Positions 19,383 through 56,706 of a stretch of DNA of 64,000 bases are shown one piece after another. Numbering within the stretch: the stretch's first letter is position 1; every line of letters starts with the position of its first letter. The stretch spans positions 79,890-143,889 of the forward strand of contig JBAZGN010000004.1 of assembly GCA_041652815.1 (NCBI GenBank), written 5' to 3'. Made by a program: the position numbers and the translations under genes. Under the pieces are notes generated by a model. The model made no database searches. It was not told the origin of the DNA and was given only the letters and a program-made list of their open reading frames with translations. Origin of the DNA: Candidatus Omnitrophota bacterium (GTDB lineage: Bacteria > Omnitrophota > Gorgyraeia > Duberdicusellales > 4484-171).

Positions 19383-20044
19383 CGATGGATACAAAACTTA
19401 AAGCTGACATTGCGGAATCAGCCGTAATCACTGAACTTCTTAAAAGAGGTTTTAGGGTGTTACGGCCGTAGGCGATAGGCTTTCCTATGATTTGGGTGTA
19501 GATTTTCAAGGAGAGTTTATCCGTATCCAGGTAAAAAGCGCGTGGTTTAACACAAAGGACAAGTGTTATATCGTTGATGCTCGGCGAACTAAGACTAATC
19601 GCCGGCGTATGTTAAGAGCGCATTACCGCAAGAACGACTTTGATTTCGCAATTGTTTACATCGCTGATTCAAATGTGTTCTACGTTATGCCTATAGCCGC
19701 GTTCTCTGGTTATAAAAGCACCATACATTTGTTGAATCAAAAAAGCGGCAGCGTGGGCCAAAAACAGCGATTTACAGAGAGCGATGGGATTTGTTATCCA
19801 ATGGGTCCCTCAGTCGGTAACGATTGATGGAAAACTTGTCAAATTCGGTGAAACTCTCGATGTTAAGTCAGAGCAATACCGAGCCAAGCCTTGACATTGC
19901 GTCAAGGAAGGTGTAGAGACTAGGTGGCAGGGACCCAACGCTAATTTAAAGTGTAACATAATTAGTGCTGGGTTAAGGTATAGTCCAGACTACAAACTCT
20001 TAACAAGCAGTTGTTAGGGGGCAGTGAAAACTGTAGCAGTAAAG
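19383..20044 (+). ncRNA. Group I intron (IC3-like, Azoarcus/cyanobacterial tRNA-intron type) carrying an ORF
   Basis: Core elements tcaaattcggtgaaact (P3/P4), gagccaagcc, gtgtagagactag (P7 5'), aaggtatagtccaga (P7 3'); omega G before the 3' exon. Confidence 0.8.
19385..19827 (+). pseudogene. Intron-encoded PD-(D/E)XK (Hjc/YraN-like, I-Ssp6803I-type) homing endonuclease, -1 frameshifted
   Basis: Frame 1 MDTKLKADIAESAVITELLKRGFRVLRP* stops at 19469-71; it continues in ORF 19492..19827 frame (GDRLSYDLGVDFQGEFIRIQVKSAW...), giving an E...D...(I/V)xVK nuclease motif. Confidence 0.55.
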
Positions 20045-38009: not shown

Positions 38010-38180
38010 TTGTTCTTTTACAAATTTATTCCCCGGTAGCCAAATTCGCCTTTTTCCACAATTTTGATAAAGGCGAATTTGTCCCGACGAACTCGGGGTA
38101 AATTTATGAAAGAAATTTACCCCGTATCTAGGTGAGTCGGGATAATAACATTGTTCTTTTACAAATTTATTCCCCGGTAG
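38010..38180 (+). repeat. 31-nt direct repeat (ttgttcttttacaaatttattccccggtagc), second copy includes the tRNA 5' end
   Basis: Copies at 38010-38040 and 38148-38178; hairpins between them. Confidence 0.6.
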
Positions 38181-38493
38181 CTCAATTGGTAGAGCGGCTG
38201 GCTGTGCGAGGCCGAAGGCCGAGCATCTCGAGGCGATAGCCGAGAGATCTTGAACTCAAGGTGTTAGCAGCTCTTATGGGAAACCGTAAGATGAAAAAGC
38301 GAGTAAATTCAGGGAAACCCCGACGTTACGTTGGGGCAATCCTGAGCCAAGCCCTGTATGGGAAGGTGCAGAGACTAGACACTCGCTGCCTAAATCCGAT
38401 GTGGACATGGCAAAGGTATAGTCCGACTCTCACAGTAATGTGAGTCAGCGTGTAACCAGTAGGTCGTAGGTTCGAGCCCTACCCGGGGAGCCA
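38171..38493 (+). tRNA. tRNA (Thr-UGU if spliced after U33; alternatively Asn-GUU) interrupted by a 247-nt group I intron
   Basis: 5' exon tccccggtagctcaattggtagagcggctggct, 3' exon tgtaaccagtaggtcgtaggttcgagccctacccggggagcca; intron 38204..38450 carries gcagagactaga / ggtatagtccg P7 elements and aaattcagggaaacc, gagccaagcc. Confidence 0.8.
38204..38450 (+). ncRNA. ORF-less group I intron (IC3-like)
   Basis: Conserved P3/P4/P7 sequences as in the Azoarcus tRNA-Ile and cyanobacterial tRNA introns; omega G; P1 ggct/ggcc with U.G at the splice site. Confidence 0.8.
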
Positions 38494-40107: not shown

Positions 40108-40312
40108 ATCCTCTTGCCCCCTTAGCTTAATTGACTTTGATTATATAGCAAAGTATAATAAATGACAATATTGCACAAGGAATGGAGGAGACTATGAGAC
40201 AATGCAAGAATCGTTAATGATTACTCGCGAAGTGGCTGAGTTGAGTTCCTCAGGGCTCGACAGATGAATCAGCGAGTGTGCTATTAGAAAAGATTAAACT
40301 GGATAAGAAGAA

Positions 40313-42697
40313 ATGAATCTCAAACCACTGCTTACAAAAATAAAGTATTATGCAACTACCTCTTGGACTCGAACAATAACTTTAAGTTCACACCTTCTTG
40401 AGAACCTTAAGAAATGCATTGTTGCGACTCGTAAGCGTATGATTTCCATTCGCCATAAACTTAAATCGATGATGGCTACCGCGCGACAGCGCGCCGGATT
40501 ATCTTATATACGAGTAATGAATTGTTATTTCACCGTGGCAGGTAGCGCTAAGAAGTGCTTTACAATTATTAGTAATTGTGCGGCTTCTATCTTCGGCTTA
40601 TTTATACTCTTTATTCTTTATATGCCATTGGCGCAGAGCGTAGTTGGTAAGATTAGCAATCTCGACGCCATATTTCTTGCGATAGGGGGTTTGATAGGTA
40701 CTATATTGGCCTTAGTTATCTCACTCTCAATAATCCCTATTCAAGCAGCTGCCGAAAGTTTCTCGTCCTCGATTATTCGACTATACAGAGAGGACAAGGT
40801 AACTCGATATATATTTGCATTGTTGTCAATTTTCTGTCTTATTTCTTTCCTAATGGCGATAGGTGAAGCATTTGGGTACGCAAAGGCAGTATTATTACCT
40901 ATAGCAATCTTGTTTGTTGCAATGTCCATTGATCTATTAAGGTGGCATCATCGCCACATAACAAATCTATTAGGATCCAATGATGCTATTAGCCAATTAT
41001 CGAGCACAGTTAAGTCTTATCTGGACAAGACTTGCAAGAACATTGCCTTTTGGGCCAGATTTAAATGGATGTTTTTACCAAAAGCAGAACAGGATAAATT
41101 ACCCGTTAAGGCAATGGAGCAGTTTTTGTCTCAACAATCTTACAATATAGGGCCGTTAAAGATTTGGTTAAACGAATTTGCAGAAGTAGCACATAAGGCA
41201 ATTGTAAAGCAAGAAGTATTAAGAGCTCAACTCGCGATATTTGCAATGGCAGATATTGCTTGTTATTTCTTGGACAAACGAAAAGATAATCTCCGCATTT
41301 ATGCAGAAACAGAAGCATTGGGGTTAGTTTTAGGCAGTGACGTGAATGATATCTTGACCCCAATCTATGAGCATTATCGCAATATCTCTCGTAATGCAAT
41401 AGATAAGAAAGTGGAAACGGCTGCGATTTGTGTAGTCCAAGCATTGGGTAAAATTTCTATACATATAACCAACCTTAAGTCTCCGGCATTCCATAAGAAT
41501 ACGGCGCCCTTAACCTATCTTCCAGTAGGATATTTGAGTACTTGTGTCGAGATGGCTCAAATAGAAAAAATGAATGATGTTGCATTACAAGGAGCCAATA
41601 TTCTTTTGGATGTTGTAAAGGCTTCTCCTGTCAATGTTGATATAGCGGATGTTCACCTTACCATACTCAAAGAACTAACGAAGATAGCTGTGGAATTTCT
41701 TGCAAAAGGCAATGTCGCTCTTAGTAACCACGTTATAACAAATATAATGACTGTGGGGCATATTGCTGTTGCGGGGAAACACTTTAACGTTGATGCAATA
41801 ATGAAACAGCTTTTGGATTATATATACAGTCTATTGGTAGGCGCAGTAACTCAACAACGACTTGCTCCAGCGACTTTCCTTAATTTGCCATTGACACCAC
41901 CGTATGACTTAACCCAAGAGGTTTCTTTGGGATATCTTGTTGCAAGAGCTCAAGATTTAATTGAGAAACCAGATGAGGAAAAGCACTGGATAAATCCGTA
42001 CAGCGATTTTATTGAACTAAATGAATCGATTACGCGTCATTTGTATAAGATTGGCGAGCAGATTGATTTCGGCCCCAATTTCCTTCTTTGGCATATAATT
42101 CATACGATAATGCACATCTCAAAAATTTTCTTTAGTCTATTACAAAAGCCAATAACAGACAATAGCGACCATATCAAGGAACTGAAAGATTGCTTCAAAT
42201 GGTATCTTAGTTTCTTCTGGCTTGTGTTTTCAAATAAGAAAACCTTTATTGAGCTGACATTTGCTGAAGAAGCCACAGACGGTCTTGCGGTTATCGGGAT
42301 GCTTTTCTACAGCATCGACCATAAAGATATCACTCAGATGTGTATTGATAACATTGCCTCTATTGCAGAATCCTATCAGGAGATAGCCAAACCAAATTCA
42401 CTCCCACAAGCAGCTTTTTCTTTTAATATAGTCGATGTTATAATGCCTCTTTGGCAGGTTCGTATTTTAATGGAAGCCAAAACAGATGCAGATTTCCTTA
42501 ATAAAATTGATAATAAGTTGGCAGTCTTCCTTAAAGGAAGGGTGATGTCCTTAGTGGGTGTTGAGCCTTTAGAAACAAGAAAACGGCAGCTACAAAGACA
42601 GCTTCAGGAAGAATTGCATTTTAGTCAATGGGAGAAGGCAGTAGGAGTACTTCAGCAACTTCTCAAACCTAACGATGTCAAGAATGATACAGATTGA
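40313..42697 (+). CDS. Hypothetical protein: N-terminal 5-6 TM then large alpha-helical cytoplasmic domain (island operon gene 1)
   Basis: 794 aa; no recognisable catalytic motif. Confidence 0.5.
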   Translation: MNLKPLLTKIKYYATTSWTRTITLSSHLLENLKKCIVATRKRMISIRHKLKSMMATARQRAGLSYIRVMNCYFTVAGSAKKCFTIISNCAASIFGLFILFILYMPLAQSVVGKISNLDAIFLAIGGLIGTILALVISLSIIPIQAAAESFSSSIIRLYREDKVTRYIFALLSIFCLISFLMAIGEAFGYAKAVLLPIAILFVAMSIDLLRWHHRHITNLLGSNDAISQLSSTVKSYLDKTCKNIAFWARFKWMFLPKAEQDKLPVKAMEQFLSQQSYNIGPLKIWLNEFAEVAHKAIVKQEVLRAQLAIFAMADIACYFLDKRKDNLRIYAETEALGLVLGSDVNDILTPIYEHYRNISRNAIDKKVETAAICVVQALGKISIHITNLKSPAFHKNTAPLTYLPVGYLSTCVEMAQIEKMNDVALQGANILLDVVKASPVNVDIADVHLTILKELTKIAVEFLAKGNVALSNHVITNIMTVGHIAVAGKHFNVDAIMKQLLDYIYSLLVGAVTQQRLAPATFLNLPLTPPYDLTQEVSLGYLVARAQDLIEKPDEEKHWINPYSDFIELNESITRHLYKIGEQIDFGPNFLLWHIIHTIMHISKIFFSLLQKPITDNSDHIKELKDCFKWYLSFFWLVFSNKKTFIELTFAEEATDGLAVIGMLFYSIDHKDITQMCIDNIASIAESYQEIAKPNSLPQAAFSFNIVDVIMPLWQVRILMEAKTDADFLNKIDNKLAVFLKGRVMSLVGVEPLETRKRQLQRQLQEELHFSQWEKAVGVLQQLLKPNDVKNDTD

Positions 42698-43916
42698 AAT
42701 TAAAGACAATAAGAAAGTTGAGTTTGCCTTAGAGGAGTTGAAGAAAACAGTGCACGATAATGTATTTCACCACTCCTTATGTAGTAATATTCTGCTTTTT
42801 AACGTTGACATAAAGGGAATTAAAAAAATCAGGGAAAGACTAAATTTGCTTCTTGTTTCCATTTCGAGATTCCAGAAATACACTTCGCATTCAATAGAAG
42901 ATTTTAAGAGGGCGATTTTGGAAGAAATTGAAGCAAGGAAAGGAATAAAACCCGAAGTTTTCCGTTTTATTTTTTATCTTAACATCGAACGTAGTAGTAT
43001 TGAAAAGAAACGGTTTTTTGCATTAAGAGGAAGTAAGCTTTTTAGCAGGACCCATAGTTTTATTGATAGGAATTTTAATTTAGAAAAATTTATTGCGGAA
43101 TCAAGACTTTATGTCAATGTTAAAATCCCACCGAGCCCTGCGATGTTCCAACCTTTTGAATGTATAGTTTCAGGAAGGAATGATGGAGAGGCATTTTGGA
43201 AAGCGTTTGATATATTTGAATTATTTAGAGCTATACTCAATTTTAGTAATAATTTTGGTGTCATTTCTGTTCATTTCGGCAGTAGGCACGCTTACTTAAA
43301 TAGTTTTTTGCCTTCACCGTTTTGTTTAGTTTATAATTCGAAAAGAGAATACCTTCATTTTAGATATGATTTAATCGAATACAAATATAAGACCTTTAAT
43401 AGAACCGGGGCATTCTTTAAACCCGAAGTTTTTAGACTGCTATTAAAAGTTTTTCGAGATGAAATCAAGGAAGAAAGCATAGAGGTAATTATATTAGAAG
43501 CCCTATTTCATTATGTAAAAGCGCTGGATTCTTTGGAGTGGGAGACAGATTTTCTTAAATTATGGAGGATTTTGGAAGTAATTACATTCTATTCTGAAGA
43601 ATCGACTATTAAGCTAACAGGCAATCGAATTAAACTATTATTTCATCAAACTCCCAAATGGAATTATGTCATTGATTTTTTATGTTCACTAAGGAATGAA
43701 TTGGTCCACAAAGGTAACTTCCCGGAAGAAGGTTCAGACCAAGTAAGTGCCTTGAAGTTCATAGTTGAAAATGCAATATCGATATTGATATCTATGCGAA
43801 AAGACTTTAAAGACAAAGCTGCTTTGAGGCTCTTTTATGAAAATGATTCTTCTGGCACAGGTGATTTAAGAAAGAAAATCTCTGTGATTAAAAAAATATT
43901 AGCTTACAGGAAATGA
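42675..43916 (+). CDS. HEPN-domain (Rx4H) Abi-like protein (island operon gene 2)
   Basis: 413 aa; C-terminal LRNELVHKGNF HEPN-type R-X4-H motif; 23-nt overlap with gene 1. Confidence 0.5.
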   Translation: MSRMIQIEIKDNKKVEFALEELKKTVHDNVFHHSLCSNILLFNVDIKGIKKIRERLNLLLVSISRFQKYTSHSIEDFKRAILEEIEARKGIKPEVFRFIFYLNIERSSIEKKRFFALRGSKLFSRTHSFIDRNFNLEKFIAESRLYVNVKIPPSPAMFQPFECIVSGRNDGEAFWKAFDIFELFRAILNFSNNFGVISVHFGSRHAYLNSFLPSPFCLVYNSKREYLHFRYDLIEYKYKTFNRTGAFFKPEVFRLLLKVFRDEIKEESIEVIILEALFHYVKALDSLEWETDFLKLWRILEVITFYSEESTIKLTGNRIKLLFHQTPKWNYVIDFLCSLRNELVHKGNFPEEGSDQVSALKFIVENAISILISMRKDFKDKAALRLFYENDSSGTGDLRKKISVIKKILAYRK

Positions 43917-43946
43917 GCAATATACTTTAACGACGAATCGGCGCGC

Positions 43947-45269
43947 GTGTTGTTGGAAAAAATAAAGTCGAGTAAGAGGACGAAAAAAATGGAAGAAAAT
44001 AATTTAGTGCAACGTATAGAGGTACTTTATGGTCAGTTATCTTCGCTTGGAGAAACGATAAAATCATCTATCAACCATAAAGATAAAAGCGATTCTTCTT
44101 ATCCTCAGGCCGCCAAAAGATACAATGTTATACTAAAACAGCTACAAGAATTAACTAAAGACATCGACTATATTCGAGAAAGTATATCACAGTTCACCGA
44201 ATATGAAGAAAAGAGCTTTATGTATCACGGTAATTACGGATACGCAATCAACCTATTAACAGATATCAATATGTTAGTTTCTTCTATTTCTAAATTTAAG
44301 AGCAGTATTGCTTTGGAGGCGAAAAAGATACAAGGCGAAAAGCCCTTGATATTTATTAGCTACGATGGAGACGAATTAGCACTCGCGGATTTCGTAAAAG
44401 TTATTATTACCAGATGGGCAGCAGACAAGATTGAAACATTCGTTGCTCGAAGAGATATTGGTTCCGGAGACAATCCGCTCAAGACTATGATGGAACTTAA
44501 GTTAAAAAATGCTGATGCTATAATTACAATTTGTTCAATTAAGTCTAAAGAAAGTGGTTGGGTGTGGTGGGAATCGGCTGTTTTATGGGCTAAAGACCGG
44601 AAAATTTTTCCTTTATGTAGCAATATATCTCCGGGTGGTTTTGGTGCCCCACTTAATTTGGTATCTCAAGGAAAATACTTTTTCGACGAAACTGAGTTTA
44701 TGGAAACTATTCAAGTGGTTTGTTCTGAATTTGACATCCAGACAGTAATAAAAGAGTTTTCTCAGGAAGAGAAAAAAGAGTATGAAAAGCTAAAGAGTGA
44801 ATATTCAATACCGAAGACAACCTCAAAAATAGATGTTGTTTTTGAAACGCTGGAAATGACTCAAAACTTGCACAAGTATTCCTTGATATTTGATGTATGG
44901 AATCTTGGAGATAAGGCATTTGAGAACGTAGTGGCTGAACTGTGGTTTCCTACTAAATATCTTGAAAAGACTGAATGGAATTATTCTCATTTACAAGCGG
45001 TTGAGTCAGAAGAAAAGAGGGGATATACTTGTTTGACCTTTGATTTTTCTGCTTTGCCAGACACCGGGAAGAGACAATTTGGGAAAGATTTGTTGCCAAA
45101 GAAGCGCTTGAGAATATTTGGTAAAGGTGGGATTTCAATACTCCAATATCATATGACCCACGATTTATGGTGGGACGTAACGAAGTATGAAGTTGTATGG
45201 AAGGTATACATCAATGGTGGAGCTCCCCACGAAGGTAAGATTTCTTTGCAGTCACTTCAACAATTTTGA
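43947..45269 (+). CDS. Coiled-coil + TIR-like domain protein (island operon gene 3)
   Basis: 440 aa; residues ~125-230 read IFISYDGDE...RRDIGSGDN...SGWVWWE, resembling TIR box1/box2 and the SxWCxxE helix with a conserved Glu. Confidence 0.5.
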   Translation: MLLEKIKSSKRTKKMEENNLVQRIEVLYGQLSSLGETIKSSINHKDKSDSSYPQAAKRYNVILKQLQELTKDIDYIRESISQFTEYEEKSFMYHGNYGYAINLLTDINMLVSSISKFKSSIALEAKKIQGEKPLIFISYDGDELALADFVKVIITRWAADKIETFVARRDIGSGDNPLKTMMELKLKNADAIITICSIKSKESGWVWWESAVLWAKDRKIFPLCSNISPGGFGAPLNLVSQGKYFFDETEFMETIQVVCSEFDIQTVIKEFSQEEKKEYEKLKSEYSIPKTTSKIDVVFETLEMTQNLHKYSLIFDVWNLGDKAFENVVAELWFPTKYLEKTEWNYSHLQAVESEEKRGYTCLTFDFSALPDTGKRQFGKDLLPKKRLRIFGKGGISILQYHMTHDLWWDVTKYEVVWKVYINGGAPHEGKISLQSLQQF

Positions 45270-46468
45270 AGGAAGGAACTATGAAGATTGATTGGACAAA
45301 TATTTGGTCTTGGATAGTTGTAACGATAGCGTCTATAGCTGGGATAGTTACTTTTTTATTGAATATTGGCAAAATCTTTTCTGGAATCGGAAAGGCTTGG
45401 CATTGGCTTTATCGTAGAATTACTCGATATCAACCGCGAGTGCCGAAAGAGACATTACGTTTAATACCGAAACCACGTCATAGCTGGTGGAGTATGGGGA
45501 CATTCGATGGCGAACCTTCTATGCAGCTTGTCTGTGATTGGTACGTTACAAACATAACAAATCAAGCTGTTAAGGTGTGTGGCGCCAGAGTACGGAAACC
45601 GAAAGTTGATGGTCATATGATGGTTCGACATCAAAAAGAAAATATATACGGGGGATACTATATCCCTCCTCAGTATACCACTGACGGAAGGGCAGATTTT
45701 TGGATTCATCCGCCTATAAAGAAAATTGGAGAGCCATTAGTCCTTGATCTCGAATTTATTGACCAATACGGAAATATTCATAGGGTTAAAAAGGTTAAAT
45801 TTAACGCTCCTCAACCAAAGAAGAAGGATGTTGAACCACCGATGGAATCAATAGCAACCATAAAAGACCCTATCGAAAAAGAGATTTTAAGCGTTCTTCA
45901 AAGCGAGGCGCATCGCTATAAAGACTGCGGACGACGAGTTGGAGGACTTGGTAGTGTTGTTCTAAACTATCAGGGGCGCAAAGTTACGGGTGTGGGAACT
46001 GATTGGAGAACGGCTGATTCCCCAGAAATGCAATCGATTGTTCCTGACCCACAGAGCGCAAAACTTGAATCCGACAATGGGACAATCCTTGTACGCTATT
46101 TTCAATCACTTACAGGAAAAGATATACAACGATTTTGTGAAGTTTTGCTTCAACGAATATCCAAAGGCAATGCTTATGCGCCAATCGGCTATTTTTTTCT
46201 GTATGTAGGATATCGAACAAATATATTGAAAGGTGTATTAAAATCTGCTAAAGATAATTTGAAGGGTGATTCGGGGTACGGATTCAGTGATTTACTTCGA
46301 CTTTTAGATGGTATACTTAAATATGAATACCAAAACTTTAATTCAGAAACCTTAGATATTATAGAACAATTTATTGATGGGTTGGACGATGAGTGTCTCT
46401 TCCGTATCCCAGAACGTGTTCGAGCAATAAGGGCATATATTCTATCTAATAAAATTATCTCATCATAA
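45266..46468 (+). CDS. Membrane-anchored hypothetical protein (island operon gene 4)
   Basis: 400 aa; one N-terminal TM; ATGA overlap with gene 3. Confidence 0.45.
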   Translation: MKEGTMKIDWTNIWSWIVVTIASIAGIVTFLLNIGKIFSGIGKAWHWLYRRITRYQPRVPKETLRLIPKPRHSWWSMGTFDGEPSMQLVCDWYVTNITNQAVKVCGARVRKPKVDGHMMVRHQKENIYGGYYIPPQYTTDGRADFWIHPPIKKIGEPLVLDLEFIDQYGNIHRVKKVKFNAPQPKKKDVEPPMESIATIKDPIEKEILSVLQSEAHRYKDCGRRVGGLGSVVLNYQGRKVTGVGTDWRTADSPEMQSIVPDPQSAKLESDNGTILVRYFQSLTGKDIQRFCEVLLQRISKGNAYAPIGYFFLYVGYRTNILKGVLKSAKDNLKGDSGYGFSDLLRLLDGILKYEYQNFNSETLDIIEQFIDGLDDECLFRIPERVRAIRAYILSNKIISS

Positions 46469-47576: not shown

Positions 47577-48191
47577 ATGAAATGGTCAATTTCTTCAAAT
47601 CAGCCAAAGCTTTGTAGCGCTACAAAAATACTTAAAGAGCTTGGTGGAAAACTTAGCAAGAAGATGTTTGAGTATCTCCGGGATACCTTTCGTCTAATTC
47701 CACCTCCCATCAAAAGAAGTGAAGGTAAAGGTATCATAGCCCTATATCCGGAATCCGTTGTGTTTTATTTGCGCCGAATTTTGATTAAGCAGAGCAAAGG
47801 ATTTACCTTCAAGCAGATTAAAGAAAAGCTAAAAATTGATACAGAGCGAATTTTCCAAGAAACCGATGCCTTGAAGCGTCAGTTCGAATTAGAGAAAGAA
47901 TTTAAGAGGCGCTTAGTTCGTGGTTTGAAGACGGGTGACCATCCCGCTTTTGATGATGGAAACGTTATTGGTAGTGCTAATAAGCAGAGTGAAGACATAG
48001 AGTCAATGATAGAGATTGTTAAGAAGGAGTTTAAGAGACAAGCAAGCAAATTAGACGATGTATCAATCAAGGCTATAAGGACCTTGAGAAAGAAATTGGA
48101 TGAACTGGAAAAGCTTGAAGGCGAAAAAAAATTTTCGCAATATGTAATCGAAGAAATTACAAAGGTGGCAAATGAAAAGACAAGGGATTAA
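47577..48191 (+). CDS. MerR/excisionase-like HTH protein with C-terminal coiled coil
   Basis: 204 aa; the N-terminal ~80 aa resemble MerR-type winged HTH; directly upstream of a recombinase. Confidence 0.35.
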   Translation: MKWSISSNQPKLCSATKILKELGGKLSKKMFEYLRDTFRLIPPPIKRSEGKGIIALYPESVVFYLRRILIKQSKGFTFKQIKEKLKIDTERIFQETDALKRQFELEKEFKRRLVRGLKTGDHPAFDDGNVIGSANKQSEDIESMIEIVKKEFKRQASKLDDVSIKAIRTLRKKLDELEKLEGEKKFSQYVIEEITKVANEKTRD

Positions 48192-48741
48192 ATATTTTAC
48201 AAGTGAATTAAAAGGAATCTTGATCAAGACATTAAAATTGCGCCGAGATGCAGTTAGATCATATGCGCTATACGATTTAATGCTTAATACTGGTTTGCGT
48301 TTGGCTGAGGTTATGGGACTTGATGTTGGAGACGTAGAAAACAGAACAGTTCTCGAGGTGATTGGCAAGGGTTCTAAATTTCGAGAAATACCTCTCAATA
48401 AGGCAATCAGAGAGCATATACAAGATTTTTTGAGTTGGAAGAAAAAGAAGGGTGAAGGTTTGTCTGCGGATTCGCCATTATTCGTTAGTAGACTTGGAAA
48501 ACGTCTTAGTAAGCGAGCCGTGCAGCGAGACCTCGCTAAATGGGTTAAGCAAGCTGGAATCGAGGGGCACTTTACGCCGCACTCTCTTAGGCATACGGTT
48601 GGAACAGAATTGTTAAATAAGACAGGGAATTTACGGGTAGTGCAGGAATTTCTCGGCCACGCAGATATATCAACAACTCAGATATATACTCACGTTAGCA
48701 GGGAGCAGATACAGCAGGCTGCTGACCTTTTGGCGATATAA
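48172..48741 (+). CDS. Tyrosine recombinase catalytic domain (truncated, no N-terminal core-binding domain)
   Basis: 189 aa; R(LRLAE)...HSLRHT...GH...Y(IYTHV) catalytic tetrad region. Confidence 0.6.
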   Translation: MKRQGIKYFTSELKGILIKTLKLRRDAVRSYALYDLMLNTGLRLAEVMGLDVGDVENRTVLEVIGKGSKFREIPLNKAIREHIQDFLSWKKKKGEGLSADSPLFVSRLGKRLSKRAVQRDLAKWVKQAGIEGHFTPHSLRHTVGTELLNKTGNLRVVQEFLGHADISTTQIYTHVSREQIQQAADLLAI

Positions 48742-48828
48742 CGACGCATTATATAGAAAAAGCGTCGTTCAATAGCGTTTTTGTGCATAAAGATGGTCAA
48801 AAAATAGGGTATAAAGCGGCGTTCGGAG

Positions 48829-49665
48829 GTGGACAAAATGGACAAAATTGGACCAAGATGGTATAGGGATGAGTCAGGTATTCACGTAGATGTCGAACTT
48901 TTGCCTGAAATAAATATCCTTGTTGAGTTTAACCTGACCGAGAACGAATACAATCAACAAATAGGTATGCTTCTTAATTGGCGTATTACTCGCATAGAAC
49001 AAGAAGCCAAACTGCATTTTGCTGAAAAGAAACCTTTCCGTGTGATAGCTGATATTGTTGGTGTCTCTAAGTCACAGGTTTGCAATGATATTGCTGATTA
49101 TCGTAGAACAATTTTAAAGAGCATCGGGCAAGATATACAAGCTAACGGGTCGGCGCTTGGTCTGTTGGTAGAATTAACTGTGCAGGTTGCGAGCAGAATA
49201 CAGCTTTATTGGGATAAGTATAACGAACTTCAGCGTTCATCGCAAGTGCTGGGAATTCTTTTAGATAGGACATATAACAGGCTTCAAAAGAATCCTAATG
49301 CGAGGGTAACGAATGCCAGCACCTTAAAGGATATAGCTCGAGAGAGACGCGCAATAGCAGAATCACAAAAGAATACCCTTGCGCAGCTTAGAGCAGAAAC
49401 CCAGCAATTGCTAAATATTTATGAGGCTTTTGGTTTGACCAGCATAGAGGCTCTCAGTTTGGTGAACACTGGCGAAGGATATCTACAACAAAAAATAGAT
49501 GAGGTTAAGAGTCTTATGCCTGTGTTAATAAAAATTATCAAGTTAGAAGTTACAGATGAGACACAAAAACGAAACATTTTCGGGAGGCTTGCAAATTTTA
49601 TTAGGGAAAATGCCCTTTCAAAACATTTAAACAATAGTGAGGTGGATTATGAATTTAGAGTATAG
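48829..49665 (+). CDS. Hypothetical protein with putative HTH
   Basis: 278 aa; RVIADIVGVSKSQVCNDI HTH-like segment. Confidence 0.35.
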   Translation: MDKMDKIGPRWYRDESGIHVDVELLPEINILVEFNLTENEYNQQIGMLLNWRITRIEQEAKLHFAEKKPFRVIADIVGVSKSQVCNDIADYRRTILKSIGQDIQANGSALGLLVELTVQVASRIQLYWDKYNELQRSSQVLGILLDRTYNRLQKNPNARVTNASTLKDIARERRAIAESQKNTLAQLRAETQQLLNIYEAFGLTSIEALSLVNTGEGYLQQKIDEVKSLMPVLIKIIKLEVTDETQKRNIFGRLANFIRENALSKHLNNSEVDYEFRV

Positions 49666-49939
49666 CCCAAAAGAAAGATACAACAAGATAGTCGAGATAT
49701 TAGCAGAGGGCGTTATTAGTCTTATCAGATACAGGTTGCGCTTATCTGCAATGTTACACAAGGGTATGAATGAATGCTTGAGTAGAATTATGGATATAAT
49801 GTCTAAGGATAAGTCAGTTAAGTCTTGTGCGATTAGTGGTTATTTTGTCGAGGCTACTATCGAGAAAAATAAACAAAAACGTTATATTGAGCCATTTGGA
49901 AAGGTTTATTCTTTTTCTCAAATGATTACACGCGATTAA
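49637..49939 (+). CDS. Hypothetical protein
   Basis: 100 aa; overlaps the previous ORF. Confidence 0.3.
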   Translation: MRWIMNLEYSPKERYNKIVEILAEGVISLIRYRLRLSAMLHKGMNECLSRIMDIMSKDKSVKSCAISGYFVEATIEKNKQKRYIEPFGKVYSFSQMITRD

Positions 49940-49953
49940 CGCGAGTATCGACA

Positions 49954-50745
49954 ATGTCTTATATTTGTAAAACAGGAAAAGGCGAAGAAGCAGACCCAAG
50001 TTTAGCCATTTTTCCAATCCTCAAAGAGGTAGATGGAAAAAGATTGGTTGTGGGCTCTGCTTTTTTTATTACTAATACGGGAATTTTTGTTACAGCAAAA
50101 CACGTTATAAAGGATGTATTCGACGAAAGAGGCAAGCAAAAATATCCAATATTTGGTTTACAAATTTTACCCGATGATAAATATATAATAAGACCAGTCC
50201 TTAGCTGTTATTCCAATACAAAATCTGATGTGGTGGTCGGTGCATTAGAGCAACAAAGGCATAAAATTACCGGTGAGCCACGATCCAATAAGCTTCTTGT
50301 TCTAACTTTAATTGAGCCAAAACAAGGGGCAAGGATAGTAACTTATGCTTATCCGGGGTCTAAAACCGAAATAGAAGGTAACGTGCAAACCCTTACATTA
50401 AAACCTGAATATTATGATGGAGTATTGGAAGATTATCTTCCGGAAGGTAGAGACAAATCAATGCTTCCTTTTCCGTGTTACAGGGGAAGTATAAGAATTA
50501 TTGGTGGGGCCAGTGGAGGTCCGGTGATGGATGAGCAAGGTCGAGTATTTGGGATAAATTGTACAGGATTCGAAGGAACGAACATCAGTTTTTTTGCCAG
50601 AATAAATGAAATTTTAGCATTGAGAGTTGACGATTTGGTGATAAATGGCGTTCACAGAGATAGTATTGATATTATTGAATTAGCTGAAAGAAAAGTAATT
50701 ATATTTGAACCGTCTTTTAAACGAAGTCAGATAATAAAAAAATAG
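49954..50745 (+). CDS. Trypsin-like (S1/chymotrypsin fold) serine peptidase
   Basis: TAKHV (His), GGASGGPV (Ser) motifs. Confidence 0.65.
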   Translation: MSYICKTGKGEEADPSLAIFPILKEVDGKRLVVGSAFFITNTGIFVTAKHVIKDVFDERGKQKYPIFGLQILPDDKYIIRPVLSCYSNTKSDVVVGALEQQRHKITGEPRSNKLLVLTLIEPKQGARIVTYAYPGSKTEIEGNVQTLTLKPEYYDGVLEDYLPEGRDKSMLPFPCYRGSIRIIGGASGGPVMDEQGRVFGINCTGFEGTNISFFARINEILALRVDDLVINGVHRDSIDIIELAERKVIIFEPSFKRSQIIKK

Positions 50746-50762: not shown

Positions 50763-51026
50763 TTAAGACACGGGAAACATCCTTCTGAGATAATTAACTG
50801 GAATCCTTTCCTTCATTGATACTGGTAGGTCTTCAGGTATATAGTAAATCGGTTTTAAAATCAAACGTTTTTGTCCGTGGGCCGTTCTCAGGATATCAAA
50901 CTCAAATTCATCCGTAAATGCAGTTTGAAGAGAGAGCGTCTCGGGGAGCCATAAAAAAATTGCCCCACCCATTTTCGGGTGGGGTTTAATTTTTTTATGC
51001 TTTTTGTATAAGGCTCGAACCGTCAA
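50763..51026 (-). CDS. Hypothetical protein
   Basis: 87 aa; the only minus-strand ORF near the island right end. Confidence 0.3.
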   Translation of the reverse strand: MTVRALYKKHKKIKPHPKMGGAIFLWLPETLSLQTAFTDEFEFDILRTAHGQKRLILKPIYYIPEDLPVSMKERIPVNYLRRMFPVS

Positions 51027-51221
51027 GGGAGTTTGAGGGAAAGTATTTCCCTCAAATTATTTAAGCTTCTTCGTAAGGAAGGGGAGTGACAGGTGTGAAT
51101 CCGAAGGATGAGCCCGCCAGAGAGGGGAAACGTAGTTTCCTCTTTGTGGAGAGGAATGAGCGAAGTGAATGACGAAGGTTCGCCGAAGGGAAAGCCCTAC
51201 CCGGGGAGTTTTGACAAAAAT

Positions 51222-51248: not shown

Positions 51249-51374
51249 TCAAATTGCCTTGGTAAAAGGGCGAGAACACCTGCCGAGTCTGTGTAAATTT
51301 ACTTCGTAAATTTACACAGTATCCAGCGAGGCGGGACGAGAGCCCATTCCAACTTCAAAAGACGGGGGAGTTTT

Positions 51375-51412
51375 TGACTTTTAAACCCTCTGTGATAATA
51401 TATTGCAGAGGG
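51375..51412 (+). promoter_or_regulatory. Promoter/operator module copy 1 (TTGACT-N16-TAATAT; palindrome AACCCTCTG..CAGAGGGTT around the -10)
   Basis: tttttgacttttaaaccctctgtgataatatattgcagagggtt. Confidence 0.6.
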
Positions 51413-51464
51413 TTTTTTGGTTTATTTTTTTAAAGTTAATTGGTATAAAAAAGGAGGGTTGGAT

Positions 51465-51944: not shown

Positions 51945-52200
51945 TCCAACCAGGGGAGTTTTGACAAAAATAGCCCAGCTTTATGCTGGGCTTTTTTGTC
52001 AAATTGCCTTGGTAAAAGGGCGAGAACACCTGCCGAGTCTGTGTAAATTTACGAAGTAAATTTACACAGTATCAGCGAGGCAGGTGGAGAGCCCTACCCA
52101 ACTCAACCTTAATATATGTATACAGAGAGTTGTCCCTTTAGGGGTTGGGGAGTTTTTGACTTTCTAACCCTCTGTGATAATATATTGCAGAGGGGTTTGT
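51945..52200. repeat. Long composite repeat, copy B
   Basis: Near-identical to copy C 60247-60500, including the perfect 31-nt palindrome ctgtgtaaatttacgaagtaaatttacacag (52039-52069). Confidence 0.7.
52154..52195 (+). promoter_or_regulatory. Promoter/operator module copy 2
   Basis: tttttgactttctaaccctctgtgataatatattgcagagggg. Confidence 0.6.
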
Positions 52201-52250
52201 TTACAATATAAAATACACATTATATATAGTAGAAAAACATAGGAGGTTCG

Positions 52251-53459
52251 ATGCTGAAAAAACATTTGTTATCCATAGTGGCTTTGCTGGCGATAAGCTT
52301 GAGTATGCCGCTTTCTAGGCTATGCGCTGAAGAATCAAATGGTGTTGTAGCTGCCAATAATCAATTTGCTTTTGAGCTTTATGCCAAATACAAATCAAAA
52401 GACGGAAATATTTTCTTCTCTCCTTACAGTATTTCTTCGGCATTAGCAATGACATATGAAGGCGCAAGGGGAAAGACCGCAGAGGAAATGCTGGTAGTGT
52501 TTCATTTTCCTAAGGATGGCGCTCTCCGTAGAGAAGGCTTCTTAGCCATAAATAATCAAATAAATAAGCAAGATAAAAAATATGAGCTACGTGTAGCAAA
52601 TGCTTTATGGGCAGAGAAGGATTACACATTCCTTGAGAATTATTTTAAGTTAATAAAAGATTACTATGGCGGAGGAGTGACAAATTTGGATTTTAAGTAT
52701 GACGCCGAAAATTCACGCCTTGCAATAAATACTTGGGTTGAAGAGCAAACAAATAATAAAATAAGGAATTTAATTCCTCCGGGCATAATTAATAATATGA
52801 CACGGTTAGTCCTTACTAATGCAATTTATTTTAAAGGAAAATGGCTTAAGCAGTTTGATGAAAAAAATACCATTGATGATGATTTTAGAATAAGCCCGGA
52901 GAAGTCTATTAAAGTTAAAATGATGAAATTAACCAGTAATAAACCAGATTTTAGTTATGCGGAAACAGACAAACTCCAGGTATTGGAATTACCTTATGAT
53001 GGCAAAGAGTTATCAATGTTGATACTTCTTCCCAAGGCGGGCGATTTAAAATCCGTAGAAGAATCACTAAATTCTCAAATGTTGACAGAATTAAAAAACA
53101 ACCTTTATGCAAACTACGTTGACATATTTTTACCAAAATTTAAGGTTGAAAGTAAATATTTTATGGCTGATGATCTTAAAGAAATGGGCATGCCTATGGC
53201 ATTTTCGGATAAGGATGCTGATTTTTCAGGTATGGATGGCATGAGAATTTTATTTATTGGACAAGTGATACACCAGGCTTTTGTTGAGGTGAACGAAGAA
53301 GGCACAGAGGCAGCTGCTGCAACAGCTGTAGTTATGGAATGCACGGGTATCTTTGAACGAAAAGTATTCAAAGCTGACCACCCATTTATATTTATAATTC
53401 AAGAAAAAAAATCCGGAAATATTTTATTTTTGGGAAGGGTTAATAATCCAGAAAGTTAA
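52251..53459 (+). CDS. Serpin (serine protease inhibitor), secreted
   Basis: 402 aa; signal peptide; NAIYFKGKW, reactive-centre-loop hinge EEGTEAAAATAV, C-terminal FKADHPFIFIIQE...ILFLGRVNNP serpin signature. Confidence 0.85.
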   Translation: MLKKHLLSIVALLAISLSMPLSRLCAEESNGVVAANNQFAFELYAKYKSKDGNIFFSPYSISSALAMTYEGARGKTAEEMLVVFHFPKDGALRREGFLAINNQINKQDKKYELRVANALWAEKDYTFLENYFKLIKDYYGGGVTNLDFKYDAENSRLAINTWVEEQTNNKIRNLIPPGIINNMTRLVLTNAIYFKGKWLKQFDEKNTIDDDFRISPEKSIKVKMMKLTSNKPDFSYAETDKLQVLELPYDGKELSMLILLPKAGDLKSVEESLNSQMLTELKNNLYANYVDIFLPKFKVESKYFMADDLKEMGMPMAFSDKDADFSGMDGMRILFIGQVIHQAFVEVNEEGTEAAAATAVVMECTGIFERKVFKADHPFIFIIQEKKSGNILFLGRVNNPES

Positions 53460-53470
53460 TCATGAGGTAT

Positions 53471-53505
53471 TTTTGACTTTCCAACCCTCTGTGATAATAT
53501 ATTGC
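53471..53505 (+). promoter_or_regulatory. Promoter/operator module copy 3 (right palindrome half absent)
   Basis: tttttgactttccaaccctctgtgataatatattgccagcc. Confidence 0.5.
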
Positions 53506-54235: not shown

Positions 54236-54333
54236 CGCTGTTAAACAGCATAACACATTTTTTTGTTTTATTCAGACTCACCAAAAAAAATCGAGCTCAA
54301 TAGACAATATAGATATTTTTCCCAATAGGGCAT

Positions 54334-54375
54334 TTTGACTTTTCAACCCTCTATGATAATAAATTGCAGAGGGTT
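54334..54375 (+). promoter_or_regulatory. Promoter/operator module copy 4
   Basis: attttgacttttcaaccctctatgataataaattgcagagggtt. Confidence 0.55.
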
Positions 54376-54416
54376 TTTTCTTTGGGATAAAATAATAAAG
54401 AAGATGGAGGTAGATT

Positions 54417-54845: not shown

Positions 54846-54872
54846 ATTTTGACGAAATCTTGTGATAATATT
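54846..54872 (+). promoter_or_regulatory. Degenerate promoter/operator module copy 5 (TTGACG..TGTGATAATATTG)
   Basis: ttttgacgaaatcttgtgataatattgtgg just upstream of the ORF start. Confidence 0.4.
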
Positions 54873-56706
54873 GTGGCATATGAAAATAAGCTATAAAAGC
54901 TTATTTGTAACGATTGTTTTTCTGGCTTTTCTGGCAAGCGGACTGTTAGCCGATTCCTATGCCGACTCTGGGTCATATAAAAAACCCGTATATAAAATAA
55001 AACCCACTTACAAGAAACCACCCTCTACAGGCGGAGCAACGGTTTATCCGACTACAACAACTTCGCCTGAAACGCCTGTATATACAACAAAACCTACTTA
55101 CAAGAAACCACCTTCTACAGGCGGATCAACTGTTTACCCAACTACAACAACTTATCCTGAAAATCCAGTATATACAATAAACCCTAACTATAAGAAGCCA
55201 CCCGCTACAGGCGGAGCAACGGTTTATCCTCCTGCTACAACTTCGCCTGAAACGCCTGTATATATAATAAAGCCTACTTATCCGCTTCCTTCATTTTCGC
55301 CTTCGCTGCCTTCACAGCCGCAGCAGCAGGAAGACGAGCCAGAGCTTGGCCGGACACAGCATGCGCTTGGTCTTGGTGTCTTTAGTGACGCGTGGGACTA
55401 CGTCTCAGGTAAGGCAAGCGATGGTTATGATGCTTTAAGAGACCTCGCCGAAGGCGGTTATGATAGAGCTAGGGATGCTGCTAGCGACACCGGAAATTGG
55501 TTTTCGGATTGGTTTACGGATCCTGTGGGGGCGTCTAATGATTTGTTTAACGCGGCGGTTGATACGTTTCAGGATTTTTTAAACGGAGTCGCGGATTTCG
55601 GGCAAAGCATTTTTAACGGAGCAGTCGATGCATCTCAATATATCGGCAATCGTTTCGTAGATTTTTTCCAGGATATAACCGGCATTGACGGATTTGTAGA
55701 CAGGGCGCAGGGTTGGGCGAATGACGCTACAGACGCGATTCAGGATGGTATTAATGACTTTATAGATTCAGCGCAGGCTGTGCAAAATGACGCTATTGAT
55801 GCTGCTCAGGATGGTGCAAACAGCGTTTTTGATTCCATATATGATGCCGCAAGAAACGCCAGAGAAGCCTTTGAAGACGCGATTGATGCGGCACTGGGAC
55901 GAAACAGAGGGCAGACCGGAGCAGGCAGTCAGGGTGCTGAACCAGCCGTCGGACCCGAAGAAGAAGCGCCTTCTGGACAAGGACCTGCTGGACAAGGACC
56001 TGCTGGACAAGGACCTGCTGGACAAGGACCTGCTGGACAAGGACCTGCTGGACAAGGACCTGCTGGACAAGGACCTGCTGGACAAGGACCTGATGGACAA
56101 GGACCTGCTGGACAAGGACCTGCTGGACAAGGACCTGCTGGACAAGGACCTGCTGGACAAGGACCTGCTGGACAAGGACCTGCTGGACAAGGACTTCCTA
56201 ATCAGCCACCCGCTCAGATTATCGTTCCTAACGCTCCGGTCCAAGTTCTCCCAGGCCAGCCTGTGACAACTCAGACAACCGCCATTCCGAACGCGAGTTC
56301 TGGAGCGCAGCAGATTTCAAAACAGCCGGGAAGTGCGGAGTCATTAACGCCGCATCCTGAAAGGCTTCTCGTAAAAAAAGCAAGGCCGGCAACTCCTGCG
56401 TGGATTTTACTTCTATTATATGCCTACATGGCAATGTGCTTACAGCGTATCGCCAAAAAAACCGCTACGTCGAAGGGATGGTTAGCATGGGTGCCTTTTG
56501 TTAATTTGTATTTATCCTGTAAGATCGCACGAAAGCCTGGCTGGACGACATTATTTTTCTTTATTCCGGTTATGAATATAGTGATGGCAATTATCGTAAG
56601 TATCGGTATTGCCAAAGCGAGGGGTAAGCCTGGCTGGCTAGGCCTTTTTTCGTTCATTCCTGTAGCCAATCTTATACTGCCGGCATATCTGGCCCTTTCC
56701 AGGTAG
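54862..56706 (+). CDS. Secreted repeat protein: Pro-rich YKKPPSTGG-TVYPTTTTSPETPVYT repeats, D/A-rich region, ~13x GQGPAG collagen-like repeats, C-terminal 2-TM W..W.P..N domain
   Basis: 614 aa; signal peptide; 18-bp DNA tandem repeats at 55966-56202; C-terminus homologous to ORF 20378..21109. Confidence 0.6.
   Translation: MIILWHMKISYKSLFVTIVFLAFLASGLLADSYADSGSYKKPVYKIKPTYKKPPSTGGATVYPTTTTSPETPVYTTKPTYKKPPSTGGSTVYPTTTTYPENPVYTINPNYKKPPATGGATVYPPATTSPETPVYIIKPTYPLPSFSPSLPSQPQQQEDEPELGRTQHALGLGVFSDAWDYVSGKASDGYDALRDLAEGGYDRARDAASDTGNWFSDWFTDPVGASNDLFNAAVDTFQDFLNGVADFGQSIFNGAVDASQYIGNRFVDFFQDITGIDGFVDRAQGWANDATDAIQDGINDFIDSAQAVQNDAIDAAQDGANSVFDSIYDAARNAREAFEDAIDAALGRNRGQTGAGSQGAEPAVGPEEEAPSGQGPAGQGPAGQGPAGQGPAGQGPAGQGPAGQGPAGQGPDGQGPAGQGPAGQGPAGQGPAGQGPAGQGPAGQGLPNQPPAQIIVPNAPVQVLPGQPVTTQTTAIPNASSGAQQISKQPGSAESLTPHPERLLVKKARPATPAWILLLLYAYMAMCLQRIAKKTATSKGWLAWVPFVNLYLSCKIARKPGWTTLFFFIPVMNIVMAIIVSIGIAKARGKPGWLGLFSFIPVANLILPAYLALSR
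55966..56202 (+). repeat. 18-bp tandem repeat (ggacctgctggacaagga) x~13 inside a CDS, encoding (GQGPAG)n
   Basis: Near-perfect copies with one GAT variant. Confidence 0.8.

Follow-up and report, generated by a model that had tools for sequence, protein, structure and literature searches.

Within a stretch of 64,000 nucleotides (nt) from a Candidatus Omnitrophica metagenome-assembled genome (MAG), hereafter the window, to whose positions all coordinates refer, four consecutive genes on the forward strand (genes 1 to 4, segment 40313-46468) encode a polytopic membrane protein, a protein with a HEPN domain, a protein with a TIR domain and a membrane-anchored protein, respectively. They belong to the cargo of an integrative island of approximately 12.5 kb, which is inserted at the 3′ end of a tRNA-Thr(UGU) gene. 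A first-pass annotation, made from the sequence alone, had proposed that the four genes constitute one undescribed four-part defence system. Here, the four families were found together only on copies of this element, each of them being present alone elsewhere with variable neighbours, which speaks against that proposal.

Gene structure and domain content

All four open reading frames (ORFs) lie on the forward strand where they had been placed before (Table 1). With the maximal ORFs, genes 1 and 2 overlap by 23 nt (42675-42697), genes 2 and 3 are separated by 30 nt, and genes 3 and 4 overlap by 4 nt, in agreement with the earlier description. Identical copies of the segment are present on three public metagenomic contigs (L001-L003), on which the gene caller chose the alternative starts for genes 2, 3 and 4 (42684, 43989 and 45281); these change the three junctions to an overlap of 14 nt, a gap of 72 nt and a gap of 11 nt, and the starts at 43989 and 45281 are preceded by good Shine-Dalgarno sequences (AAGAGGA and GGAAGGA, respectively). 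The spacing remains operon-like with these starts. Considering the close spacing, the promoter-like site upstream of gene 1 and the fact that no strong or convincing terminator was found within the cluster, co-transcription is plausible and the four genes are probably transcribed together, with which the spacing had previously been called consistent. The promoter-like site is a consensus match alone, and such sites are no commoner in the region than in shuffled sequence. Since homologues of all four genes occur elsewhere, they are real genes. The GC content of each gene, both overall and at third codon positions, is too alike to argue either way on separate origins, gene 2 being slightly richer in AT.

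The assignment of a HEPN domain to gene 2 was borne out. RNxxxH is conserved in all seven full-length relatives (7/7), and in an AlphaFold model (pLDDT 78, pTM 0.73) an alpha/beta domain at the N-terminus is followed by a helical C-terminal domain, which is all-alpha and matches HEPN folds. The LRNELVH motif is indeed present in the C-terminal domain, but it is located at residues 336-342 of 410 and not at the very end of the protein, where it had been described. In the N-terminal domain, the motifs RAILNFSNN and NSFLPSP are invariant. Searches against Pfam, NCBIfam and PADLOC returned nothing at E ≤ 1 for this protein, and hence no curated HEPN family was matched; the family profile gave no match to PDB sequences, and Foldseek found no significant match of the model in the PDB, so that the N-terminal domain could not be placed. 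This is a very rare family, to which 8 of 5.8 billion clusters belong.

Gene 3 contains a TIR domain, as had been supposed from its motifs. Its match to Pfam TIR_2 (PF13676) is above the cutoff (34.4 bits, cutoff 28, E = 3.4e-8, residues 135-226 of the ORF of 440 amino acids (aa)), and IFISY, RRDIGSGDN and SGWVWWE were all confirmed; the score against ThsB_TIR is 18.0 bits, below the cutoff of 21.2. An exhaustive HMMER search yielded 268 relatives, approximately 11 representatives of which combine the TIR with the C-terminal domain (the two spanning residues 113-426) and have a variable N-terminus. FxSY, RD and WxWWE are invariant in the family alignment (A3). In hmmsearch alignments with two plant TIRs, L6 and RPS4, the Glu of WxWWE (E195 when counted in the 426-aa form) falls opposite their catalytic Glu (WCLME and WCVRE, respectively), and E195 is accordingly the predicted catalytic residue of gene 3. 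The N-terminal region of approximately 100 residues shows weak matches to coiled-coil families and nothing more. The N-terminal helical domain (43989-44290) is also found fused to GGDEF (diguanylate cyclase/Cas10-palm-like), which replaces the TIR domain, in the protein P0253, and the C-terminal domain occurs on proteins with other N-termini. Judged from domain composition, these fusions indicate a modular exchange of putative sensor and effector parts.

Genes 1 and 4 were correctly described as membrane proteins. Hydropathy analysis of gene 1 revealed about 4-5 hydrophobic segments at residues 81-212, which are part of a DUF2254-like transmembrane (TM) region (residues ~81-237) followed by a C-terminal domain of approximately 550 aa. 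The match to DUF2254 (PF10011) reaches 27.8 bits, with a cutoff of 28.8, and covers profile positions 40-167 of 368. The family comprises 14 clusters, and 9 of the 14 members carry a precomputed PF10011 match; its profile gave no match to PDB sequences. Gene 4 has a single N-terminal TM helix, followed in a confident predicted model (pLDDT 90.8) by a beta-sandwich and a helical domain. Its family is widespread: clustering at 90% identity gives at least 159 clusters, which come from many phyla of bacteria and from one archaeal MAG (Promethearchaeota). No match was obtained for gene 4 in Pfam, NCBIfam and PADLOC or, with the family profile, among PDB sequences, and searches of solved structures were uninformative.

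Distribution and linkage of the four families

Profile hidden Markov models (HMMs) of the four families were applied to six-frame ORFs of 108 fetched loci, and L001-L003, all of them copies of this element, were the only loci in which the four families coincided. Co-occurrence across unrelated genomes, by which a multi-gene defence system is recognized, was thus not observed for genes 1-4. Homologues of gene 2 (74%, 53%, 42%, 41%, 41% and 35% identity; 7 independent loci in all) are situated in unrelated neighbourhoods, including CODH/ACS genes, an SNF2-PLD/methylase/nSTAND island, housekeeping genes and a DUF2958/DprA-type element, and no relative of gene 1, 3 or 4 was detected near any of them. 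Likewise, the 13 genome loci of gene 3 homologues contain no relative of gene 1, 2 or 4, no recurrent neighbour and no consistent membrane partner; the genes around them are of various kinds, with a methylase, ArdA, a resolvase and another TIR beside housekeeping genes, and the family with both TIR and C-terminal domain occurs in environmental lineages only (Omnitrophota, Desulfobacterota-type MAGs, Nitrospirae and Brocadia). Gene 1 homologues without genes 2-4 are present in two independent contexts, namely beside a CHAT-TPR protein (L012) and in a sister island (L014).

For gene 4, no relative of gene 1, 2 or 3 and no recurrent neighbour was found in 80 metagenomic loci, many of which are short contigs (36 have at least 1.4 kb upstream). 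In addition, a broad TIR HMM built from approximately 130 diverse relatives detected no TIR near any homologue of gene 4 (the 80 loci), gene 2 or gene 1 elsewhere, which argues against either gene 4 or gene 2 being the effector of a TIR-made signal. When the two genes closest to gene 4 homologues on either side were examined (148 proteins), DNA methylases, type I S subunits, ResIII helicases, integrases, transposases and PIN proteins were encountered, and PADLOC identified BrxC, type I specificity subunits, mad2 and mad5 among them. This family keeps the company of defence islands (restriction-modification (R-M), BREX, MADS and integrative elements) without a fixed partner.

A pairing of genes 1 and 2 was also considered and rejected, as a gene 1 homologue (61% identity, L014) lacks gene 2 and a gene 2 homologue (74%, L010) lacks gene 1.

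Sister islands with the same backbone show how the cargo varies. In L014 (ENA ERZ27247363 k141_2258918), the cargo consists of RadC, Dcm, Vsr, DUF6338 and the gene 1 homologue, which is directly followed by the backbone, and genes 2-4 are missing. L016 has hsdR, hsdM and hsdS directly upstream of a gene 4 homologue (60% identity), then directly the backbone, and carries none of genes 1-3. A close sister island, L109 (JGI Ga0255811_10136734), contains a helix-turn-helix (HTH) gene, hsdR, hsdM, hsdS, a gene of 309 aa, genes 3 and 4 (95% identical to those of the window), two small genes and the backbone. A single 5.7-kb block of DNA, 87.6% identical and starting at 43983, is common to the window and L109; upstream of this position, they have the recombinase gene alone in common, and L109 has the HTH-hsdRMS-309-aa gene set in place of genes 1 and 2. 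Because the block starts in the spacer between genes 2 and 3, genes 1 and 2 are exchangeable against a type I R-M system. Conservation of the cassette had been named beforehand as one of the points on which the four-part proposal would stand or fall; the cassette is not conserved elsewhere, and L109 swaps genes 1 and 2 with a breakpoint between genes 2 and 3.

It is therefore very improbable that genes 1-4 represent one integrated defence system, in which the products of genes 1 and 4 would serve as sensors or anchors in the membrane, together with the TIR and HEPN effectors. Such a system would fit the shared strand, the short gaps and overlaps, the single promoter-like site upstream and the combination of two effector-type domains with two membrane proteins, but the families are jointly present on this element only, the sister islands carry gene 1 alone, gene 4 alone or genes 3 and 4 without genes 1 and 2, a recombination breakpoint falls within the set, and every family is found alone elsewhere. 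Instead, with a probability of about 0.7, we consider the segment 40313-46468 to be the slot in which an integrative island carries variable cargo, occupied here by single-gene modules that would be independent of each other, would have been gathered by cargo exchange and would not be parts of one machine. Gene 2 would then probably be a stand-alone HEPN protein and gene 3 probably a stand-alone TIR protein, and the membrane proteins encoded by genes 1 and 4 would each act on their own. In gene 2, the N-terminal alpha/beta domain may restrain the C-terminal Rx4H RNase until a trigger is encountered, upon which RNA cleavage would lead to growth arrest. In gene 3, infection may be sensed, or oligomerisation driven, by the C-terminal domain, by the helical region at the N-terminus or by the two together, and the TIR domain would hydrolyse NAD+ via the predicted catalytic Glu195, leading to abortive infection. 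The data establish the structure of the genes, the identity of their domains, their setting in an island and the absence of conserved linkage between them. A defence role of the individual genes is plausible; this role and all activities mentioned are what we infer from domain content and context.

Several points weigh against this interpretation. In L109-L111 (95% identity), the only close relatives encountered, genes 3 and 4 remain direct neighbours with a gap of 11 nt. The distances and overlaps between the genes are compatible with a single transcript, and co-transcribed genes may cooperate even after a recent assembly. Sampling is thin for gene 1 (two independent contexts) and gene 2 (seven), and the short contigs on which many gene 4 loci lie limit what can be seen around them. 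Several homologues of genes 2 and 3 are located among housekeeping genes, outside defence islands.

The adjacency of genes 3 and 4 bears on the possibility that these two genes together are a Thoeris-type module specific to this lineage, with genes 1 and 2 as unrelated cargo. In such a module, the TIR protein would sense infection and either make an NAD-derived signal or act directly, and the membrane-anchored gene 4 product would be the effector. The short gap, the overlap of the gene 4 Shine-Dalgarno sequence with the end of gene 3 and the persistence of the pair in L109, L110 and L111 despite replaced upstream cargo are all consistent with this, as is the observation that Thoeris TIRs combine with effectors of many types, TM proteins and domains without known function among them (10.64898/2025.12.03.692087). 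However, L109-L111 belong to the same element lineage, so that their adjacency does not count as independent evidence. An effector that needs a TIR-made signal should travel with the TIR, but the gene 4 homologue of L016 and 79 further gene 4 loci have no nearby TIR of any family, and the 13 gene 3 loci have neither gene 4 nor a consistent membrane neighbour. Moreover, PADLOC gave no Thoeris match and the ThsB_TIR score stays below its cutoff. Taken together, we consider a Thoeris-type pair unlikely.

Our best guess for gene 4 is that it serves by itself in defence or exclusion, because the family is often found beside R-M, BREX and MADS genes and on integrative elements. We suggest, tentatively and with considerable doubt, that the family comprises new membrane-anchored proteins, each encoded by a single gene and acting against phages or in exclusion, and that in this Omnitrophota lineage it may also have been coupled to the stand-alone TIR protein of gene 3 as a new two-gene module.

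Some or all of the genes may also have no anti-phage function and serve as addiction or stabilisation toxins of the island, or, in the case of the membrane proteins, serve the host or the element in other ways. PADLOC and PHROGs gave no match, several homologues of genes 2 and 3 have housekeeping neighbours, the structure searches with gene 4 and the sequence search with gene 1 provided no lead, and toxin-antitoxin and other conflict systems likewise make use of HEPN and TIR domains. This explanation is nevertheless improbable to us, since classical defence genes occupy the corresponding slot of the sister islands (type I R-M in L016 and L109, Dcm/Vsr in L014), the neighbours of gene 4 homologues include BREX, R-M and MADS genes, one gene 2 homologue (L006) lies within an R-M/SNF2-PLD/nSTAND island, and a TIR with an intact catalytic Glu and a HEPN domain with Rx4H are typical of abortive-infection effectors.

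Island architecture and neighbouring features

The mobile context that had been recognized around the four genes was substantiated: site-specific recombinases, a tRNA target, flanking att repeats and sister islands with the same backbone and other cargo together identify an integrative island. At its left end, the stop codon of the large serine recombinase gene overlaps the 3′ end of the tRNA-Thr gene; this recombinase is 81% identical in L109 and is also conserved in L014. Default ARAGORN missed the tRNA, which was recovered as tRNA-Thr(tgt) when introns were allowed, the intron being at position 34, after position 33, in the anticodon loop. The two small genes downstream of gene 4 are present in L109 and absent from L016. 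The backbone, which has Pfam matches to Phage_integrase and Trypsin_2, is conserved in L014, L016 and L109. The sister islands resemble the window up to 50951, the last position of a short copy of the tRNA end that is likely attR. A second att-like repeat further to the right, detected by repeat search, is possibly a remnant of an earlier integration, and the presence of two repeats of the tRNA-Thr 3′ end on this side suggests that islands integrated at this tRNA one after another or that a tandem island located there has decayed. These islands form a family in Omnitrophota in which variable cargo, such as Dcm/Vsr or type I R-M genes, is carried between a large serine recombinase and a short (189-aa) tyrosine recombinase.

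Table 1. Coordinates of the four genes, their key motifs and the features of the island (positions in the window)
Feature	Position	Strand	Description
tRNA-Thr(UGU) with 247-nt group I intron	38171-38493	+	Integration target, attL side; Rfam RF00028, 82 bits
Large serine recombinase, 542 aa	38479-40107	-	Left end of island; Pfam Resolvase, Recombinase, Zn_ribbon_recom
Promoter-like site TTGACT-17-TATAAT	40131-40159	+	5′ of gene 1; 11/12 consensus matches
Gene 1	40313-42697	+	ORF of 794 aa
Gene 2	42675-43916	+	Maximal ORF, 413 aa; gene-caller start 42684 gives 410 aa
Gene 2 layout	42684-43916	+	Unplaced N-terminal alpha/beta domain, then C-terminal HEPN domain
LRNELVH	43689-43709	+	HEPN Rx4H motif (R337...H342), gene 2
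Gene 2-gene 3 spacer	43917-43988		Holds the cargo-swap breakpoint
Gene 3	43947-45269	+	Maximal ORF, GTG start, 440 aa; gene-caller start 43989 gives 426 aa
Gene 3 layout (426-aa form)			N-terminal helical/coiled-coil region; TIR ~113-270; C-terminal domain ~280-426
E195 codon	44571-44573	+	Glu of WxWWE (426-aa numbering); invariant in 12 family members
Gene 4	45266-46468	+	Maximal ORF, 400 aa; gene-caller start 45281 gives 395 aa
Gene 4 layout (395 aa)			N-terminal TM helix; beta-sandwich 59-175; helical domain with invariant CGRxxGGLGS loop
Two small genes, 176 and 105 aa	46626-47512	+	Further cargo; hydrophobic N-termini with lipobox-like Cys motifs
Backbone	47577-50745	+	204-aa protein, 189-aa tyrosine recombinase, 278-aa protein, small ORF, trypsin-like protease
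CGGGGAGCCA	50942-50951	+	Copy of the last 10 nt of the tRNA; end of the backbone common to sister islands; likely attR
Second att-like repeat	51193-51208	+	16-nt exact copy of tRNA positions 38475-38490

Some further features of the window were recorded. A 37-nt direct repeat (95% identical; 38010-38046 and 38151-38187) duplicates the 5′ end of tRNA-Thr together with upstream sequence and may be the scar of an earlier rearrangement at this tRNA. A second group I intron is present at 19783-19996 (Rfam, 63.7 bits), and its 3′ flank resembles the T-arm and acceptor end of a tRNA, which ARAGORN did not resolve there even with introns allowed. To the right of the island, a 128-nt repeat occurs at 51196 and 51946, and four copies of a 43-62-nt element (51364-51433, 52146-52215, 53463-53505 and 54325-54394) are located upstream of successive genes, including a serpin gene. 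This element contains TTGACTTT, the inverted repeat CCCTCTG...CAGAGGG and GATAATAT, and from its composition and placement it looks like a shared promoter-operator unit. Three tandem copies with 90-nt spacing (83-86% identical to the reference copy, 54980-55280) lie within a 614-aa ORF (54862-56706), and the GC content of this region is 0.47-0.49 versus 0.38 for the window. The trypsin-like protease gene of the backbone (49954-50745) is close to the serpin gene (52251-53459), which is situated just outside the island, and in a Planctomycetes genome (L004) a serpin is encoded approximately 6 kb from the gene 2 homologue; these proximities may be coincidental.

Relation to known systems and significance

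The four proteins do not correspond to any named system, as the first-pass annotation had already stated: PADLOC has no match for any of them, and NCBIfam and PHROGs likewise gave nothing usable. No cyclase domain, as would be expected of CBASS or Pycsar, was detected in the four proteins with Pfam, NCBIfam and PADLOC. Searches of IMG/VR viral contigs yielded no member of the four families, and a search of PLSDB plasmids did not recover gene 4.

Single-protein TIR systems with anti-phage activity have been experimentally validated in E. coli (PMC11350192), and a systematic survey of Thoeris explicitly separates stand-alone TIRs from Thoeris (10.64898/2025.12.03.692087). Gene 3 resembles the single-protein systems in being one gene with a conserved Glu in its TIR domain, additional non-catalytic regions, no fixed partner and a location in mobile or defence islands, but differs from them in its restriction to environmental lineages, the lack of a PADLOC model and its unannotated N- and C-terminal domains. 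The likeness to Thoeris (types I-XI, ThsB TIR plus effector) lies in the position of a TIR gene directly upstream of a TM protein with domains of unknown function; unlike in Thoeris, ThsB_TIR is not matched at its cutoff, no known Thoeris effector is present, the gene 4 family is never beside a TIR elsewhere (80 loci) and the gene 3 family has no recurrent neighbour.

For gene 2, HEPN-containing abortive-infection and toxin proteins (AbiV, the HEPN domain of AbiA, HEPN-MNT toxins and Csm6/Csx1) are among the closest known systems. Gene 1 is similar to DUF2254, a family without a known function, in that its TM region aligns with PF10011 and most members of its family have a precomputed match, and it differs in a score just under the cutoff and in the large additional C-terminal domain.

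Defence hotspots in the cargo regions of integrative elements, such as those of P2/P4 type, and defence islands are an established concept. The Omnitrophota island conforms to it in having a conserved recombinase backbone and a variable slot with R-M or other small defence-type genes; it differs from the known hotspots in its host, its combination of serine and short tyrosine recombinases, its intron-containing tRNA-Thr target and its uncharacterised cargo families. The cargo of the island thus consists of defence-type genes from unannotated families.

The present analysis removes a false lead, in that a four-part TIR, HEPN and membrane system does not appear to exist as a unit, and it illustrates that tight, even overlapping, spacing of genes in an island is no evidence for a multi-gene system. 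It also delimits, for the little-studied Omnitrophota, a family of integrative islands whose variable slot is occupied by R-M genes or by genes 1-4. The four families, which are absent from Pfam and PADLOC, are candidates for single-gene defence screens, the best of them being the widespread gene 4 family and the rare gene 2 family with its new N-terminal domain joined to HEPN.

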